From Candidatus Aenigmatarchaeota archaeon (GTDB lineage Archaea > Aenigmatarchaeota > Aenigmatarchaeia > QMZP01 > QMZT01): a stretch of DNA of 64,000 nucleotides. The position numbers and the translations under genes are program-made. Positions 15,961 to 21,673 of this stretch are shown here, piece by piece; within the stretch, counting starts at the first letter, position 1; the number at the start of each line of letters is the position of its first letter. A model generated the notes under the pieces. That model saw nothing but the letters and a program-made list of their open reading frames with translations, was not told where the DNA came from and ran no database searches. The stretch covers positions 36,167-100,166 of the forward strand of contig JAFGCI010000006.1 in the NCBI GenBank assembly GCA_016932735.1, read 5' to 3'.

Positions 15961-16647
15961 ATGAATATCGGGGGGTTTGTCAAGAACACGCTAATAGACT
16001 ATCCGGGAAAGATGTCGTGCATCATATTCACACAGGGATGTTCTTTCCGCTGTCCCTTCTGCCAGAACAAAGAGCTGGTTGACGTCCCCGATGATGCAGA
16101 ATCCATAAAGGAGTCATACATCTTTTCATTTCTCAAAAAAAGAAAAGGCTTGCTTGATGCGGTTGTAATAACCGGAGGAGAGCCGACACTTCAAAAAGAC
16201 CTTCCCGATTTCATAAGGAAAGTCAGGGAGCTTGGATTTCTCATCAAGCTCGATACCAACGGATGGGCTCCTGAAATTCTTGAAAGGTTGTTAAAAGAGA
16301 ACCTAATCGATTTTGTTGCAATGGACATCAAGGCTTCAAAGGATAATTATGAGAAGGCGGCAGGCGTCAAAGTAAATATATATAATATAGAGAAGTCAAT
16401 CCGCCTTATACGTTCATCAGGACTCCCATACGAATTCAGGACGACTGTCGTCCCCGGAATCCACGATAAAGACGACATCAGGAAAATGGCTCAGTGGATT
16501 GAAGGCTCAAACCTCTTCCTGCAGAAGTTCGTCCCTCAGAACACGCTTGACCCCGAATACGAAAAGAAGAATCCATTCACTAACAAGGAAATGGAAGAGA
16601 TGAAAAAGATTGCGGGGCAGTTTGTGAATTGTGGGCTGAGAGCTTAA
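15961..16647 (+). CDS. nrdG: anaerobic RNR activating enzyme NrdG (radical SAM)
   Basis: The 'GCSFRCPFCQN' CxxxCxxC cluster and 'VVITGGEPTLQ'. An alternative GTG start at 15952 overlaps the stop of the preceding small ORF. Confidence 0.8.
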   Translation: MNIGGFVKNTLIDYPGKMSCIIFTQGCSFRCPFCQNKELVDVPDDAESIKESYIFSFLKKRKGLLDAVVITGGEPTLQKDLPDFIRKVRELGFLIKLDTNGWAPEILERLLKENLIDFVAMDIKASKDNYEKAAGVKVNIYNIEKSIRLIRSSGLPYEFRTTVVPGIHDKDDIRKMAQWIEGSNLFLQKFVPQNTLDPEYEKKNPFTNKEMEEMKKIAGQFVNCGLRA

Positions 16648-16751
16648 TGTTCGCTTTCTGCCCGAATAGGGCGCAAATAACGAATAAAATTCGTTAAATA
16701 GTTGTTTTTCTCAATAGATTTTTCACTACTGGCTCTTGCTTCAATTGGTTA

Positions 16752-16765
16752 GGAAAACGGGGGGG
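16752..16765. repeat. left inverted repeat aaaacGGGGGGGGG (G9 homopolymer) of cassette 1
   Basis: Perfect reverse complement of 19299-19312. A second shared 12-mer (tagatttttcac, about 16716-16727) lies about 30 nt outside. Confidence 0.7.
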
Positions 16766-16810
16766 GGAGCTATAATACTATTTTATAAATAATGTTTTCA
16801 ATTTTGGAAT

Positions 16811-17683
16811 ATGCCGAAAAGAAATATGTTGTGGATTTCATTTGCTGTCATTTTTTTGATTTCATTTAGTGGGTGTATCCAACAAAACACGAAAGAAAAT
16901 GCAGAATCAATCGCACAGGAATTTGCTATAAATTTACAAAAATCAGACTATGAAAGCTTATATGATTTATTCATACCTGATCTCAAAAGCATGAGAAAAA
17001 AATCAGATTTCGTTAAATATGTGAATATAAAAGGATCGCCACTTGATAACAATTATATAATTTTTGACAAAGTCGTAATGCAGGGAGATAATGAAGCTTA
17101 TGCATATTATACGTTATCAAGTGGCATATTTGAGGCTAAAGTTCCTCCTATGCATTTGATTTTTACGTCGGAAGGTTGGCGTGTTGACGCATTTTCAGAT
17201 TACTTTTCTGCTGGATGCATCATAGATGATGACTGTTCAGCAGATTATCCTCGGTGTAGCAAAAATTTAGAATGTGTAAAATGTGTAAGTGATGCAGATT
17301 GCTCCGATTCGGGAAAGAAGCATTGTGATAGTGTTCTTAATATCTGTCATGAATGTATAGAAGATTACCATTGTCCCAAAGATAAACCAATATGCTATGG
17401 GTTTAGTTGTATTGAATGTAGGAAAAATTCAGATTGCCCAACAGAAACTCCATATTGTAATTATGTGTTAGGCAGTGGTTATGTTTGCAATAATAATCCT
17501 ACCGGGATAGAATGTATAGAGGATGTAGATTGTATCGTACTTTATGGAACAAAAAAGATGTATTGTAATGCGAATGGAAAGTATATTAGATTTACTCACG
17601 AGGATGAATGCATTTATTGCAGAGACGAATCAGACTGTCCTAGAGGAAAAGATTATTGCATTTCAGGTGAATTCTGTGTCTAA
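16811..17683 (+). CDS. putative lipoprotein with C-terminal cysteine-rich repeats
   Basis: Signal and lipobox-like 'FLISFSGC'. The C-terminal half has four 'C-x2-C-x3-5-DC-x5-8-C' repeats (e.g. CVKCVSDADCSDSGKKHC, CIECRKNSDCPTETPYC). Confidence 0.6.
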   Translation: MPKRNMLWISFAVIFLISFSGCIQQNTKENAESIAQEFAINLQKSDYESLYDLFIPDLKSMRKKSDFVKYVNIKGSPLDNNYIIFDKVVMQGDNEAYAYYTLSSGIFEAKVPPMHLIFTSEGWRVDAFSDYFSAGCIIDDDCSADYPRCSKNLECVKCVSDADCSDSGKKHCDSVLNICHECIEDYHCPKDKPICYGFSCIECRKNSDCPTETPYCNYVLGSGYVCNNNPTGIECIEDVDCIVLYGTKKMYCNANGKYIRFTHEDECIYCRDESDCPRGKDYCISGEFCV

Positions 17684-18104
17684 ACTTGGATATAGTGAAG
17701 ATGATAAAAGAAAACACCTTGAGTTTATTCAGTTGGCTATAAACAGAATGGCGGCTAATTCATTTATCCTAAAAGGTTGGAATATTACACTTGTTGTAGG
17801 TCTATTTGCTGTTTCAATAACAAAAAACCAAAATCTTTTTTTAATACTTGCTTTATTACCGGCCATTGCTTTCTGGGGTTTGGATTCATATTATCTGAGA
17901 AAAGAAAAACTGTTTCGTGAACTGTATAACTTTGTAAGGATGAGAGATAAGAGTCTAATAGATCCTTATTCATTGGAGACAAAGGAATTTGAGAAAAATA
18001 TCAAAAGTTGGTTTCATATACTATTTTCACGAACCGTGATAGTATTACATGGCCCCATAATTATATTTATTTTATGTTTTTCTATGATTCTATGGGGTGG
18101 TTAA
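17676..18104 (+). CDS. small 2-3 TM membrane protein (SLATT-like candidate effector), partner of the TIR-like protein
   Basis: It has an N-terminal amphipathic helix (DDKRKHLEFIQLAINRMAANSF). Three hydrophobic segments follow: 'WNITLVVGLFAVSI', 'LFLILALLPAIAFWGL' and C-terminal 'VIVLHGPIIIFILCFSMILWGG'. The stop TAA at 18102-18104 lies 2 nt before the TIR start. Start uncertain (GTG 17676 or ATG 17748). Confidence 0.5.
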   Translation: MSKLGYSEDDKRKHLEFIQLAINRMAANSFILKGWNITLVVGLFAVSITKNQNLFLILALLPAIAFWGLDSYYLRKEKLFRELYNFVRMRDKSLIDPYSLETKEFEKNIKSWFHILFSRTVIVLHGPIIIFILCFSMILWGG

Positions 18105-18106
18105 AT

Positions 18107-18598
18107 ATGGCAAGAAAAGTATTTTTCAGTTTTCATTATGAAAAGGATGCATGGAGAGCTGGACAGGTTAGAAATAGTAATGTCGTGCGTTCAGAAGATA
18201 CTACTGGATTCATAGATGCATCTGAATGGGAGAAAGTTAAAGAGAGAGGACAAGATGCAATTAAGAACTGGATTAATGAACAATTAAAAGGTACTTCGAT
18301 CACAGTAGTTCTAATTGGAAGTGAAACATCTGAAAGGGATTGGGTTAAATACGAACTTCAGAGAAGTTATGAAAAAGGAAATGCCTTTTTGGGGATATTC
18401 ATACATAATCTTGAAGATCAAGAAAAAAGAACAACGTCAAAGGGGGATACCCGATTTGGTGAATTAGGAAAAGATTCTGAAGGTAAATCTGTCTATTTAT
18501 TCCAACTCGCTAAGTTTTACGATTGGAAAAATGATGATGGTTACAACAATTTTACAAAATGGATTGAAGAAGCTATCTCAAACCAAAATGGAAACTAA
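18107..18598 (+). CDS. TIR-like domain protein (DUF1863 / ThsB-like)
   Basis: 'MARKVFFSFHYEKDAWRAGQVRN...ITVVLIGSETSERDWVKYELQRSYEKGNAFLGIFIH' carries the FFSFHY-x-D signature and the 'VLIGSET..R.WV.YE' pattern of Thoeris ThsB-type TIR domains. 163 aa from ATG 18107. Confidence 0.75.
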   Translation: MARKVFFSFHYEKDAWRAGQVRNSNVVRSEDTTGFIDASEWEKVKERGQDAIKNWINEQLKGTSITVVLIGSETSERDWVKYELQRSYEKGNAFLGIFIHNLEDQEKRTTSKGDTRFGELGKDSEGKSVYLFQLAKFYDWKNDDGYNNFTKWIEEAISNQNGN

Positions 18599-18975
18599 CT
18601 CTTCTTATACCCAAACTTCTTCTCATAATCCCTGTGGTTCATGATATCTAATATCAAAGAAATAATCTCGACTTCGTTGCCTCTTATAGTATATATCATT
18701 CTCCATGCTCCCGAAAGGTTGATTTTCCACAGGTTGTTTACATCATAATTTTTGATATATTCTTTTGGTGTTCTGTCTTTCGGGATATGAATTCCATATT
18801 GCGGGTTATCTCTTAACAACTCGATTTTCTGTTTAATAGAGTTAAGAAGCGTTTGGTGGTCACTGTTAGTAATACCCTTGGAAATCTCTTCGCCTACGAG
18901 TTTGTTCAAATCATCAAACTCTTCTTTAGCTTCTCCGGTAATAATGACTTTGGTGATCTTTCCTTTGAACATCAC
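18595..18975 (-). CDS. RelE/ParE-family type II toxin
   Basis: C-terminal 'NLWKINLSGAWRMIYTIRGNEVEIISLILDIMNHRDY' matches the RelE/YoeB-fold pattern. A 4-nt ATGA overlap links it to the upstream ORF. Confidence 0.7.
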   Translation of the reverse strand: MMFKGKITKVIITGEAKEEFDDLNKLVGEEISKGITNSDHQTLLNSIKQKIELLRDNPQYGIHIPKDRTPKEYIKNYDVNNLWKINLSGAWRMIYTIRGNEVEIISLILDIMNHRDYEKKFGYKKS

Positions 18976-19244
18976 AACTCAACTCCCTCTTTTATCGCCT
19001 TGTCAAGTTTCGGGCTGGGATTGTATATCCATAAAATTCCTTTCCTGCCGTCAATTATTTTACCGCTGTTCTCTAAATAGCTTAATATGACATTCAGCGT
19101 TTGGTGCATTATTTTTACAGGCAGTTTTTTCTTTATATCTTCCCGTGTCATTAATTCATTTGATTCCTTTAGAACTTCTTCTACCATTAACACAGTCTTC
19201 AGATTCGGGTAATGAATGACCTCGGCTTTTTGCATACAAAACAC
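18972..19244 (-). CDS. putative cognate antitoxin (90 aa)
   Basis: Upstream of the RelE-like gene on the minus strand and overlapping it by 4 nt. No antitoxin family recognised. Confidence 0.45.
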   Translation of the reverse strand: MFCMQKAEVIHYPNLKTVLMVEEVLKESNELMTREDIKKKLPVKIMHQTLNVILSYLENSGKIIDGRKGILWIYNPSPKLDKAIKEGVEL

Positions 19245-19298
19245 CTTGTATAAACTTATATAATATTATATATAGAAATATATAAACTTTTGCTTTCG

Positions 19299-19312
19299 CC
19301 CCCCCCCGTTTT
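19299..19312. repeat. right inverted repeat CCCCCCCCCgtttt (C9) of cassette 1
   Basis: Perfect reverse complement of 16752-16765. The 12-mer gtgaaaaatcta at 19343-19354 is the reverse complement of tagatttttcac at about 16716-16727. Confidence 0.7.
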
Positions 19313-19634
19313 CAATAACTTTGCGAGTTGGTTAGCTGTGAAGTGAAAAATCTACTCTCGCCTTCGGCTCGGTTTCCCTGCGGTCAACGAGAAAAACAGG
19401 AAATATGCGGGAAAACTATACAAAGTTGTTGAATTTTCCCCAAATTTCAGCTTCGCTGAAACTATCGCATATTTCCATCGGTTATGCTCAATTGCGAATC
19501 CGCCTCTGGCGAGGTTACCATAGAAAATTCTCTTGTTGTTGCCTTCGTTAAAATTCACAAAACGAAAAAATAACGAAATTGCTTTGCAAATCGTCTAACA
19601 AAATTTTAACGAAATTTTTTCTTATCTTTAACAA

Positions 19635-19645
19635 GGGTTGCCGCC
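19635..19645. repeat. inverted repeat gggttgccgcc (preceded by ttttttctt) bounding cassette 2
   Basis: Reverse complement of ggcggcaaccc at 20990-21000, which is followed by aaaagaaaaaa. Confidence 0.6.
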
Positions 19646-19646
19646 T

Positions 19647-20468
19647 TTACTTATCTTTCTCAATCAATACAAATAACATTAGAAGAAGCATAGTAGACCT
19701 TTGTTCATTATCATAGTTAATCTCTCTTCCATGTAAAATTGGGTGTCTGAAATCCTTTGAATAAACATTACTTTTAGTATGCTCGCCGAATTTTGAAGAA
19801 TTATTAAAAATTTTTATAATTAGTTCTCCCAGCGAACATTCTATTGGTTTTCCATTTTTCCCTAAAATTAAATTCCCTTTAACATCTATCAGATTTTTGC
19901 TATTAAATTTATTCTCGATTAATCCTTGATTAATTCCAATATCCCAAAGTATACCTTCAATTTGCGATAACAAAAGAGGAATAGAGCTTATATAATCCTT
20001 ATTTTTATGATGCTGAATAGCCTTTTCTAAAATCTTTTCTCTTGCTTTAATAATCTTATCCGTTCTTACCTTTGAAATCAATTCATTCAATAACTTGTCA
20101 TCTTCAAAATCAGATATTAGTTGTTTCCATACTTCTTCTTTTCCGCTCGCTTTAAGCTTATCCTTGAGTTCAGAAGCGTAAGACATTGATATTGCTTCAA
20201 TCCACCCAAATTCTTTAAGAAATTCTTCCCAGCCTTTGAAATCAAAATTTTTTGCTATCTCAGTAAGAGGTTTTAATGATTGTGCAATTGATTGAGATAG
20301 TAATTGCATTCTTTTAAATGGTTCAGTAAGTGCTTCCATTTGTGCCTGAAATTGCAGATTGAATAATTGAATTGGTGCCAGAGAAATAGAAATTTTATCA
20401 TGAAGTTCTTTCATTATTTTGTTTATTTGATCCAGATTATTCATTTGTATCATCTTCAAGTTCTTCAT
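19647..20468 (-). CDS. hypothetical protein with C-terminal HEPN-like Rx4H motif (candidate Abi-like nuclease)
   Basis: 273 aa, AT-rich. 'SKDFRHPILHGREI' fits R-x4-H. Lies 18 nt downstream of the SHOCT gene on the same strand. Confidence 0.45.
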   Translation of the reverse strand: MKNLKMIQMNNLDQINKIMKELHDKISISLAPIQLFNLQFQAQMEALTEPFKRMQLLSQSIAQSLKPLTEIAKNFDFKGWEEFLKEFGWIEAISMSYASELKDKLKASGKEEVWKQLISDFEDDKLLNELISKVRTDKIIKAREKILEKAIQHHKNKDYISSIPLLLSQIEGILWDIGINQGLIENKFNSKNLIDVKGNLILGKNGKPIECSLGELIIKIFNNSSKFGEHTKSNVYSKDFRHPILHGREINYDNEQRSTMLLLMLFVLIEKDK

Positions 20469-20486
20469 TGTCCATTTAAGACAGAA

Positions 20487-20942
20487 TTATAATCCAAGCA
20501 ATTTTTTCTTTTTTTGCTCAAATTCTTTTTGAGTTATAACTCCTTTCTTCATTAAACTATATAATTTCTCTATCTCATCTGCATCGCTAGAAGTAGATTT
20601 TTCTGAAGAACTATTTGCTTTCTCAATGTGTTCTTTTATTTCAAGAGCCTTTTCGTAATTATCTTTACCATTGAACGAAACCGTATTTTCATCACTTACT
20701 GCATTAAAAACGCCACCTCTAGCCTCAATACCTCCTGGCAAGGAAAATTGAATATATCCTGCGGTAAACCCTGGTTTTTTAATCTGAATTGAGGTTATAT
20801 TTTTGAAGTAAATATCTTTCTTTCCTTTTAACCCATGAATCATGAAACCCATTGCTGTTCCTCTATCTAGCCTAACAAATTTTTCATAAAGTTCTATTCT
20901 TCCATTTGTTCCTTTGAATTCAATTATTGGTTTTTGTTCCAT
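20487..20942 (-). CDS. SHOCT-domain protein with N-terminal bPH/DUF4429-like domain
   Basis: C-terminal 'EIEKLYSLMKKGVITQKEFEQKKKKLLGL' is a typical SHOCT motif. Start set at the internal MEQKPIIEF. Confidence 0.6.
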   Translation of the reverse strand: MEQKPIIEFKGTNGRIELYEKFVRLDRGTAMGFMIHGLKGKKDIYFKNITSIQIKKPGFTAGYIQFSLPGGIEARGGVFNAVSDENTVSFNGKDNYEKALEIKEHIEKANSSSEKSTSSDADEIEKLYSLMKKGVITQKEFEQKKKKLLGL

Positions 20943-20989
20943 GATAACACTATTATATCTAAGGAATTTATAAATTCTTCTAATTGAAC

Positions 20990-21000
20990 GGCGGCAACCC
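20990..21000. repeat. inverted repeat ggcggcaaccc (partner of 19635-19645)
   Basis: See the partner repeat. Confidence 0.6.
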
Positions 21001-21251
21001 CCAAAAGAAAAAACTACGGCAACAACGAATTTTCGGCGGACTCGCAACTCGAAATTTTTGCCTTCGGCATTGTTGCACTAAAATTTCGTCCTAACGGAGA
21101 GCATAACAGGGCTTAACCGACTACGAAACCTTGCAGGTTTCTCCGACCCAAATTTTTTCTTCAGCTCTGTTCCGCTTCGCTCCACGAGGAAGAAAAAACT
21201 TCCCTTAAGCCCGATGTTATACGCAGTTTCTATAACTAAAAAACAAGTCTC

Positions 21252-21371
21252 TACATCAAATCAACAAAGCTCGACCTTCCTTCGCCTGCAATCTTCTTCT
21301 CCTTCTTCTTCGGCTTTTTCAGGTAAGACATTCTTGTCTTGACCTTCTTGGTGGAAGTTGGCGCTTTCATA
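21252..21371 (-). CDS. small basic ORF (39 aa, MKAPTSTKKVKTRMSYLKKPKKKEKKIAGEGRSSFVDLM)
   Basis: Hand translation of the minus strand. Lys-rich; could be a small ribosomal or nucleic-acid-binding protein, or spurious. Confidence 0.2.
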
Positions 21372-21463
21372 TCCAATAATTAGCATTAAGATTAAAAACA
21401 GTTTTGCATGAAAACAACGCCCAAATTTAAATATTCTTCCTGACAATAGGTATTGATATAAAT

Positions 21464-21673
21464 GGGCTCGTAGCTCAGCCTGGTGAGGCTTTAAGCCTTT
21501 AGGCAATTAGAGCACCAGACTCTTAAACCCAGGATATGCCGAATTTCCTTCTGGAAATGATGACTTGGAGATATCTGGGGGTCGCGGGTTCGAAACGGTA
21601 TTTGCAAAGTAATTTGTAAATGTGTTTCATGATGCACCATGCATCAGTTGCCGGTGAAATCCCGTCGAGCCCA
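21464..21673 (+). tRNA. tRNA-Lys (anticodon CTT) with three putative introns
   Basis: Exon 1 is GGGCTCGTAGCTCAGCCTGGT (21464-21484). Exon 2 is AGAGCACCAGACTCTTAA (21509-21526). Exon 3 is TCTGGGGGTCGCGGGTTCGAA (21574-21594). Exon 4 is TCCCGTCGAGCCCA (21660-21673). Spliced, they give a 74-nt cloverleaf with a 7-bp acceptor stem, D-stem GCTC/GAGC, anticodon stem CCAGA/TCTGG, loop CTCTTAA and T-arm GCGGG/TTCGAAT/CCCGT. The introns are about 24 nt (D-loop 20/21), about 47 nt (37/38) and about 65 nt (T-loop 59/60). Confidence 0.55.

Follow-up and report, generated by a model that had tools for sequence, protein, structure and literature searches.

What delimits the two gene blocks, here called cassettes 1 and 2, that lie side by side between nrdG and a tRNA-Lys gene in the genome of a Candidatus Aenigmatarchaeota archaeon? 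The stretch analysed here (the window) comprises 64,000 nucleotides (nt) of contig JAFGCI010000006.1, and all positions refer to its own numbering; the two-cassette array occupies 16704-21236. The genes of cassette 2, encoding a HEPN-fold protein and a DUF4429-SHOCT protein, are enclosed by an inverted repeat, GGGTTGCCGCC and GGCGGCAACCC, accompanied by T and A tracts. A first-pass annotation, made from the letters alone, took this repeat for the boundary of the cassette. The present analysis confirms that the repeat is real and well past chance, yet only the inner portion of a larger structure. The actual delimiter, which had gone unnoticed, is a conserved AAC...GTT hairpin module. The repeat and its tracts probably form part of a long, cassette-specific hairpin that is split around the cargo, in an integron-like array with a Xer-type enzyme, bulge-less attC-like modules and a crossover in mid-stem.

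The repeat lies exactly where it was first placed, with arms at 19635-19645 (GGGTTGCCGCC) and 20990-21000 (GGCGGCAACCC) and tracts at 19615-19623 (TTTTTTCTT) and 21003-21013 (AAAAGAAAAAA). The stop codon of the HEPN-like gene, in its 273-amino-acid (aa) open reading frame (ORF), is found at 19647-19649, one base off the left arm. As a bare 11-mer the repeat is weak evidence; a search of the whole window for further occurrences returns only these two sites, with 0.34 matches expected, and two or more matches occur in 7 of 100 shuffles. The claim that it exceeds chance stands by virtue of the arms in which it is embedded. Repeat and tracts are two (P5 and P4) of five collinear helices, P1-P5, which pair 165 nt to the left of the genes with 118 nt to their right. 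Given on the plus strand and from the outside inwards, P1 joins GTTATGCTC (19481-19489, the left R box) to GAGCATAAC (21099-21107, the right R box), P2 joins TTGCGAATCCGCC (19492-19504) to GGCGGACTCGCAA (21035-21047), and P3 joins GAAAATTC-tct-TGTTGTTGCC (19523-19543) to GGCAACAACGAATTTTC (21018-21034). A local branch hairpin, TTCGTTAAAATT...AATTTTAACGAA (19544-19614), then precedes P4 on the left arm, and further branch hairpins occupy 21048-21098 on the right arm, between P2' and P1'. P4 and P5 are separated by an 11-nt internal loop on the left and by a 2-nt loop (CC) on the right. Co-folding of the two arms gives a ddG of -57.8 kcal/mol, compared with -6.7 ± 3.5 for dinucleotide shuffles (z = -14.5). 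The tracts, first described as a separate flanking feature, are helix P4 itself, and inward T runs are not general among cassettes.

The true ends of cassette 2 are the R boxes, GTTATGCTC on the left (from 19481) and GAGCATAAC on the right (to 21107), 154 and 107 nt farther out than the 11-mer. At both ends there is an attC-like module, a branched hairpin of 80-133 nt (median 87, n = 67) with integron-type R boxes, a two-hairpin branch at its tip and the consensus xxxTAAC-ATATG-stem...stem-CT-GTTAxxx. An alignment of six copies (RNAalifold) contains 24 consensus pairs, of which 15 show compensatory changes; the paired AAC and GTT do not vary, and stem A, of 10-11 base pairs (bp), has compensatory changes at 8 of 10 positions. 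In the window, the covariance model built from this alignment (R1) recognises two minus-strand copies and no others. W2 (19393-19485; 80.2 bits), a three-way-junction hairpin with covariation in its stem, reads ATAAC-CGATG-GAAATATGCG...CGCATATTTC-CT-GTTTT, and W1 (21103-21220; 33.8 bits, E 4.4e-05) was outside the training set.

The same modules recur on other contigs. R1 finds seven co-oriented intergenic copies in metagenome locus L081 and four strong ones in L083, and when metagenomes are scanned first with a 17-base motif and then with R1 (E < 0.01), 107 matches appear in 66 of 120 loci, with two or more co-oriented copies in over 20 loci. Eleven viral contigs matched the search pattern by chance, and in these R1 found no genuine module. 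Among 67 distinct high-scoring copies from the window and other contigs, all start with (A/C/T)TAAC and 66 end with GTT(A/G/C/T)n; R boxes such as GCATAAC, GCCTAAC and GTTAGGC fit the integron consensus, which is RYYYAAC for R'' at the 5' end of a site and GTTRRRY for R' at its 3' end.

The first-pass annotation had further grouped cassette 2 with its neighbour as modular defence cassettes, and cassette 1 (16704-19397, minus strand) is indeed constructed alike. It has R boxes GTTTTTCTC (16704-16712) and GAGAAAAAC (19389-19397) and two long-range helices, TAGATTTTTCACT (16715-16727) with AGTGAAAAATCTA (19342-19354) and GAAAACG9 (16753-16767) with C9GTTTTC (19299-19313). The latter repeat, which brackets the gene block, is stronger than that of cassette 2, and the arm pairing reaches z = -6.4 and -8.2. 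The notion of the 11-mer as a common delimiter did not hold up; the inner helices are cassette-specific, and the 11-mer is found again only in a homologous cassette. A GC-rich helix adjoining the cargo is present in many cassettes, for example GGGTTGCCGCC, GAAAACG9, AGAGTTGGGGGC, GGAGACCCC and AGGCGCGCGC.

What cassettes do share across arrays is a set of end rules. The first 9 nt of a cassette (GTTxxxxxx) are complementary to its last 9 (xxxxxxAAC). This match is complete in 22 of 38 cassettes and extends to at least 8 of 9 positions in 29; in the first set it is complete in 10 of 12, and in an independent set of 26 there are 12 complete matches and 7 more at 8 of 9. Pairing past the R box is specific to each cassette. 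When positions 10-130 of both ends are co-folded, leaving the R box out, cognate ends give -22.4 kcal/mol and non-cognate ends -8.8 ± 4.3 (Mann-Whitney p = 4e-13), and in 15 of 25 cassettes the cognate combination comes out first of 49. Cognate and non-cognate pairs are told apart by chained exact helices and by co-folding, but not by simple local alignment. The position of P2 is fixed: its start lies 2 nt inward of R'' on one arm and, on the other, 44-76 nt inward of R', following a conserved CCYGA...GCGAAG branch. In all 35 cassettes compared, arms and modules have the same mutual orientation, with CCYGA after GTTAnnnnn and AATT before nnnnnTAAC. These flanks of the R boxes, AATT 5' of R'' (A, T and T positions in 33-35 of 35) and CCYGA 3' of R', are near-invariant and unpaired, and may be contacts for the recombinase. 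Some cassettes have no ORF at all and consist of R boxes, branch hairpins and a short P2 only (110 nt at L159 2593-2702; 167 nt at L115 307-473), while others carry two to five genes on both strands.

That cassettes move as units is suggested by a homologue of cassette 2 in the independent metagenome contigs L081 and L082, where a HEPN-like homologue (86% identity) forms part of a two-gene block. The first-pass annotation had named an orthologous locus devoid of the repeat as evidence against its importance; the homologous cassette retains it, as 12 bp. Between the window and L081 the arms are about 92% identical and the HEPN gene about 85%. Homology ends exactly at P1 on both sides (GTTATGCTC and GAGCATAAC), beyond which the neighbours differ, and on the inner side it ends just past P5, with the DUF4429-SHOCT gene in the window and an unrelated 271-aa gene in L081.

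A similar pair is formed by L158 (4950-5270 and 100-400) and L167 (7570-7905 and 1-380), with arms of about 90% identity and the same R box, GTTAGCCGA. Here the two arms (the ‘shell’ of a cassette) are shared, but cargo, 5' branch hairpins and neighbouring modules differ. The mismatch between modules and arms in both pairs implies that modules, shells and cargo reassort. Smaller changes are seen between samples. L081 (~935) and L082 (~140) differ by a 25-nt deletion inside a module, and L086 (~1180) differs from L085 (1120-1166) by a 47-nt deletion that removes the 3' half of a module, its GTT and the start of the next cassette, fusing two cassettes. Such deletions may explain the half-modules inside some arms. 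The relative L001 (NrdG 83% identical) has the same junction on the nrdG side and different, smaller content. An inverted repeat around a small ORF in L001 was considered and set aside; it is marginal (z = -2.7), and R1 finds no module there.

A candidate for the enzyme acting on these sites comes from the ends of other arrays. In four related contexts (six fetched loci; L081/L082, L083-L087, L119 and L184), the gene next after the last module is Xer-like and has the same relative orientation each time. Read from the recombinase end, the integrase gene is divergent from the array, as in integrons. Its product scores 196.6 against TIGR02249, below the cut-off of 265 and in two separate stretches, and is just below the cut-off of XerA_Arch. 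It aligns end to end with Pyrococcus abyssi XerA (4A8E), and has 16 residues where VchIntIA (2A3V) has 62, including the IntI-specific domain. A XerA-like tyrosine recombinase devoid of the IntI insertion is the probable enzyme of the array. In L081, L083 and L119 the recombinase gene is set apart from the last cassette by a semi-conserved terminal junction, ...AAC-(A/T)ACTAT-T followed by a hairpin. The window and L001 have this junction beside nrdG, with a covarying hairpin in L001. In the window it comprises a small hairpin and then AAATAGTTG↓TT (16678-16706, plus strand; junction proper 16696-16706), which on the minus strand reads ...AAC-AACTATT. Judged from its sequence, AAATAGTTGTT plus the hairpin is a candidate attI-like site.

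The mechanism preferred here starts from the observed structures and their covariation, the complementarity of cassette ends, the strand bias (see below), the linkage to a recombinase and the homologous cassette in another array. Cassettes of the form GTTxxxxxx...xxxxxxAAC would be the product of G↓TT recombination between folded sites. The bases beyond the crossover would be carried along with the cassette, so that the R box is paired again in the circle. For cassette 2, the junction of the excised circle is predicted as ...TTAAGCCCGATG↓TTATGCTCAATTGCG..., that is ...G + TTATGCTC.... In such a circle the cassette ends would become contiguous, and the 50-130 nt past the R box at each end would pair via helices P2-P5, interrupted by local branch hairpins, so that ends and module make up one imperfect hairpin of 250-400 nt, in which the module forms the tip and the crossover point falls in mid-stem. 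Integration would split this hairpin, leaving its halves on either side of the cargo. The long stem may serve the folding or extrusion of the site.

The composite can be modelled from the window itself. Joining 20990-21216 to 19482-19645, the circular junction of cassette 2 folds as a single 391-nt hairpin running from P5 to P1, with W1 at the tip; W1 would be the cassette's own module if the array is oriented as in integrons. With DNA parameters its minimum free energy is -95.3 or -89.1, depending on the strand (z ~ -13.5); shuffles reach -38.6 ± 4.2, and a non-cognate combination -47.3. The corresponding 246-nt composite of cassette 1 has z ~ -8.

Several observations weigh against this mechanism. 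There is no tyrosine recombinase in the 64-kb window, so the array here is CALIN-like (a CALIN being a cluster of attC sites lacking an integrase), and the XerA-like enzyme found elsewhere could be a housekeeping Xer. Extrahelical bases are not obvious in the module stems inspected; W2, L083a, L083c, L083d and L081b have a perfect duplex of 10-11 bp as stem A, and a single bulge occurs only in L083b. Stems of this kind are consistent with a recombinase that has no IntI insertion. The modules on either side of the shared window/L081 cassette differ although its arms are 92% identical, a difference not expected from a strict one-sided G↓TT crossover. In some cassettes the extended pairing is weak, and 10 of the 25 cognate pairs are not ranked first. 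Cargo orientation is mixed (longest-ORF strand 13:20), unlike that in classical integrons. Lastly, the empty sites that the first-pass annotation had proposed to look for were not found; among 140 loci there is no clean, exact presence/absence polymorphism of a cassette, the only variants seen being internal deletions by which modules are fused or damaged, and no circular junction, so recombination is inferred rather than observed.

The main question among alternative explanations is whether the paired arms act in DNA or in RNA. A role in RNA could consist of pairing between the 5' and 3' parts of a transcript, for stability, processing or circularisation (as in the processing stems of archaeal rRNA), or of one large non-coding RNA with insertions. 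The many perfect nested hairpins would suit it, as would the two mismatches in P2 and P5, each a G.U pair when the gene-sense strand is read. Module folding is also strongly strand-biased, the strand equivalent to the window's minus strand folding better in 65 of 67 modules with RNA parameters; with DNA parameters the count is 60 of 67. The loops of these hairpins hint that the folded species is single-stranded DNA rather than RNA. CGAAG loops, many as GCGAAGC, favour the module-folding strand by 61 to 8 in four arrays, and the minus strand by 5 to 0 in the window array (examples are on the minus strand of 19440-19450 and 21170-21180). GCGAAGC is a classic, unusually stable DNA mini-hairpin. 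An initial interpretation of the complementary CTTCG motifs as plus-strand cUUCGg RNA tetraloops was dropped, since the strand statistics indicate minus-strand CGAAG loops. When the recombinase end is taken as the start of the array, the folding strand is the bottom strand and the putative recombinogenic one. Long-range arm pairing, by contrast, is strand-symmetric (25 cassettes, p = 0.7), and cargo orientation is mixed; both points count against a transcript-based role. A TATA-like box, TTTATAAA (20966-20973, minus strand), read from the sequence between P5 and the ATG, is the putative promoter of cassette 2 itself, and cassettes of L081 and L083 have similar A/T boxes in the same place, between ATG and innermost helix. 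As these boxes lie on the gene side of the innermost 5' helix, the 5' arm would be upstream of, and thus outside, the cassette's own transcript. A search for bulge-helix-bulge splice or processing stems gave no two 3-nt bulges 4 bp apart at the helices, and Rfam over 16500-21400 returned no family at the gathering threshold nor, bar noise, at E up to 10. A single large RNA gene with two insertions was rejected, as the flanks move with the cassettes. Strand bias, loops, arm symmetry and TATA positions together favour a structure at the DNA level over one in mRNA, and an RNA-level role is unlikely.

The remaining alternatives are less probable still. The T/A tracts and the GC helix might act as bidirectional insulators or terminators against read-through; archaeal RNA polymerase terminates at oligo-T, and in cassettes 1 and 2 oligo-T runs inward on both sides. 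Across 33 cassettes, T runs scarcely exceed A runs (35:23 in 5' arms, 36:30 in 3' arms), and neither the R-box rule nor the GC-rich helices specific to each cassette, as far as 130 nt from the genes, would be explained, which makes this an improbable primary function, while a secondary one is possible. About as improbable, or slightly more so, is that the arms are the terminal inverted repeats of a non-autonomous cargo transposon resembling miniature inverted-repeat transposable elements, mobilised by a transposase in trans. Long imperfect inverted repeats do surround a discrete unit which recurs in another context and encodes no enzyme of its own. However, neither cassette has a target-site duplication, and the arrays and their surroundings contain no transposase; the arms lack symmetry, with separate branch hairpins in each, and differ from cassette to cassette with only GTTA/TAAC in common, so that a sequence-specific transposase could not recognise them. 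The units are, moreover, always parted by the same oriented module, in arrays that end at a tyrosine recombinase gene. An invertible segment flipped by a site-specific recombinase would account for perfect inverted repeats round gene blocks, for gene orientations near 50:50 and for the associated tyrosine recombinase. It would also be expected to occur in both orientations, whereas the orientation of arms to modules is constant, as noted above, and no cassette was seen in both orientations between the same modules among the fetched loci; with repeats that also differ between cassettes, inversion is very improbable. A chance inverted repeat in AT-rich DNA, with which the shuffle test of the bare 11-mer alone would be compatible, can practically be discounted in view of the arm pairing, the conservation of the repeat in other contigs and the recurrence of the architecture in dozens of cassettes. 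An unrelated idea, that GAAAACG9 is an ORB/G-string element of an archaeal replication origin, was also abandoned; there is no orc1/cdc6 nearby, and the pattern of cassette arms fits.

The split-hairpin cassettes of the window carry genes of defence type. In cassette 2, the HEPN-fold protein (19647-20444, minus strand) has 265 aa from the second Met, its ORF extending to 20468 (273 aa). Modelling predicts the four-helix HEPN fold, with the Rx4-6H motif (as Rx4H) and an extra N-terminal region of about 65 residues that is poorly modelled. The protein matches no Pfam, NCBIfam or PADLOC family. The 265-aa form is identical to an annotated protein from a Candidatus Aenigmarchaeota metagenome-assembled genome, and an exact look-up of both full-length cargo ORFs returned no record, for the HEPN ORF because the gene is called from the second Met. 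The original label of a HEPN-like defence gene is supported by sequence comparison, as distant HEPN-fold homologues lie within type I restriction-modification operons; P0013, P0016 and P0022 (43-52% identity; L088-L091) are located between hsdR and hsdS/hsdM. Embedding in type I restriction-modification loci is reminiscent of PrrC/RloC-type nucleases. Unlike in HEPN-MNT systems, there is no MNT partner beside the gene, and the N-terminal region is additional. The second gene (20487-20945, minus strand) encodes a 152-aa protein with DUF4429 (PF14472, 4.3e-07; 30.9 bits, cut-off 25) and SHOCT (PF09851, 2.2e-08; 34.0 bits, cut-off 27), which bears out its SHOCT label. HEPN-fold and DUF4429-SHOCT proteins together support a defence-type assignment for this cargo.

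Cassette 1 carries a 290-aa Cys-rich secreted protein without a family match (16811-17683, plus strand). It is followed on the same strand by a membrane protein of PDC-M50A type (PADLOC 1.6e-43; within 17544-18104) and a ThsB-type TIR protein (~18107-18598; ThsB 9.6e-65, PDC-M50B, PF08937), a pair that is a candidate two-gene defence system (17544-18598). On the minus strand are a ParE-like toxin (18595-18975; PF05016 just below threshold) and, upstream of it, a small partner ORF with no family match (18972-19244), which may, from its position, be the antitoxin.

The array interval is bordered by nrdD-nrdG and tRNA-Lys(CUU). Its G+C content (27-39% across ~16.7-21.0 kb) contrasts with roughly 40-58% in the flanks, and the window's gene content, which includes rpoH and a split rpoB, is archaeal. 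Read from the sequence, the distal array end (GTTATAcgcagtttcTATAAC, 21216-21236, plus strand) appears to be an empty remnant, 21 nt long, whose ends are complementary. An ORF for a very basic 41-aa peptide (MDMKAPTSTKKVKTRMSYLKKPKKKEKK...; 21251-21376, minus strand) is located between array and tRNA promoter; it is not in the aligned region of L001. The tRNA-Lys(CUU) gene (21464-21673, plus strand) is interrupted by three introns of 24, 47 and 65 nt, in the D-loop, after the anticodon loop and in the T-loop, leaving exons at 21464-21483, 21508-21526, 21574-21594 and 21660-21673. Because of these introns it is overlooked by ARAGORN and Rfam; the spliced sequence is called as tRNA-Lys. L001 has the same gene with larger first and second introns, its third-intron region being under Ns. 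The run of Ns (L001 7945-8043) extends over the tRNA's 3' portion and the beginning of the gene next to it, and limits comparison of the right side with the only close relative.

On a more general level, it is conceivable, though somewhat less than an even bet, that DPANN archaea, with Aenigmarchaeota as the only named host, possess distinct integron-like platforms. These would use a XerA-type recombinase without the IntI insertion, acting on a site at the apex of a cassette-specific hairpin of 250-400 nt, with each cassette wrapped in its own site halves; such shells might perhaps be reusable vehicles for new genes. If the split-hairpin model holds, the capture of cassettes by structure-specific recombination goes beyond the IntI lineage in breadth and age, paired ends round cargo are a signature for cassettes that standard attC models may miss, and one shell with different cargo offers a handle on the origin of cassettes, an unsolved question for integrons. 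Small-genome archaea are also marked as holders of exchangeable defence genes (HEPN, TIR/PDC-M50, ParE).

How do these arrays relate to known systems? The likeness to integrons and CALINs is extensive. Tandem cassettes are parted by oriented, structure-conserved hairpins with R boxes xxxTAAC / GTTAxxx, and each cassette starts with bases complementary to its own R''. Folding favours one strand, some cassettes have no ORF, content turns over between relatives, and defence genes, among them toxin-antitoxin and TIR genes, abound in the cargo. The arrays terminate at a tyrosine recombinase gene which, in integron orientation, points away from them. Like integron attC sites, imperfect palindromes of ~57-141 nt, the modules (80-133 nt) are conserved in structure rather than in sequence. 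There are also clear differences. In integrons, extrahelical bases set the choice of strand and contact the IntI insertion; here the recombinase has no such insertion, and the modules have no evident extrahelical bases. Complementarity extends 50-130 nt past the R box at both ends, placing half of the site upstream of the cargo, and the modules are not co-inherited with the cassette body. Instead of mostly single promoterless ORFs driven by the integron promoter Pc, cassettes carry several genes in either orientation, apparently with promoters of their own.

Two other Xer-based systems offer partial parallels. Integrative mobile elements exploiting Xer (IMEX) include the CTX phage, which integrates as a folded single-stranded hairpin via Xer. 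By analogy with these, the arrays would employ a Xer-family enzyme without the IntI insertion on a folded site of ~150 nt or more, with tandem accumulation at one site; unlike in IMEX, no dif-like 11-6-11 site was identified in the arrays, and the units are many different promoter-plus-gene cassettes, not phages. In the pdif modules of Acinetobacter plasmids, accessory and toxin-antitoxin genes lie between inversely oriented Xer-type sites. Those sites are short, sequence-conserved, double-stranded and uniform, whereas the repeats described here are long, module-specific and structure-conserved.

Within the archaea, integrons were described only in 2022, with bacterial-type attC sites and IntI enzymes (PMC9668308). 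Ghaly et al. report archaeal integrons and CALINs, including some from Aenigmatarchaeota, with IntI enzymes that carry the additional domain (PMC9668308). Their nine tested archaeal attC sites, one of them from Aenigmatarchaeota, measure 59-97 nt and follow the pattern xxxTAAC-AAnTC-...CAGCnGAC...-GTC-GTTAxxx (PMC9668308, Data S9). The modules of the present arrays have the R boxes alone in common with these sites, and differ in their ATATG/CT spacers, branched tip and L region. Full-text searches of open-access papers gave no account of Xer-linked arrays or of the pairing of cassette ends. In our reading, the arrays follow the logic of integrons with different parts: a Xer-like recombinase, bulge-less sites and a long, cassette-specific stem that is split by integration.

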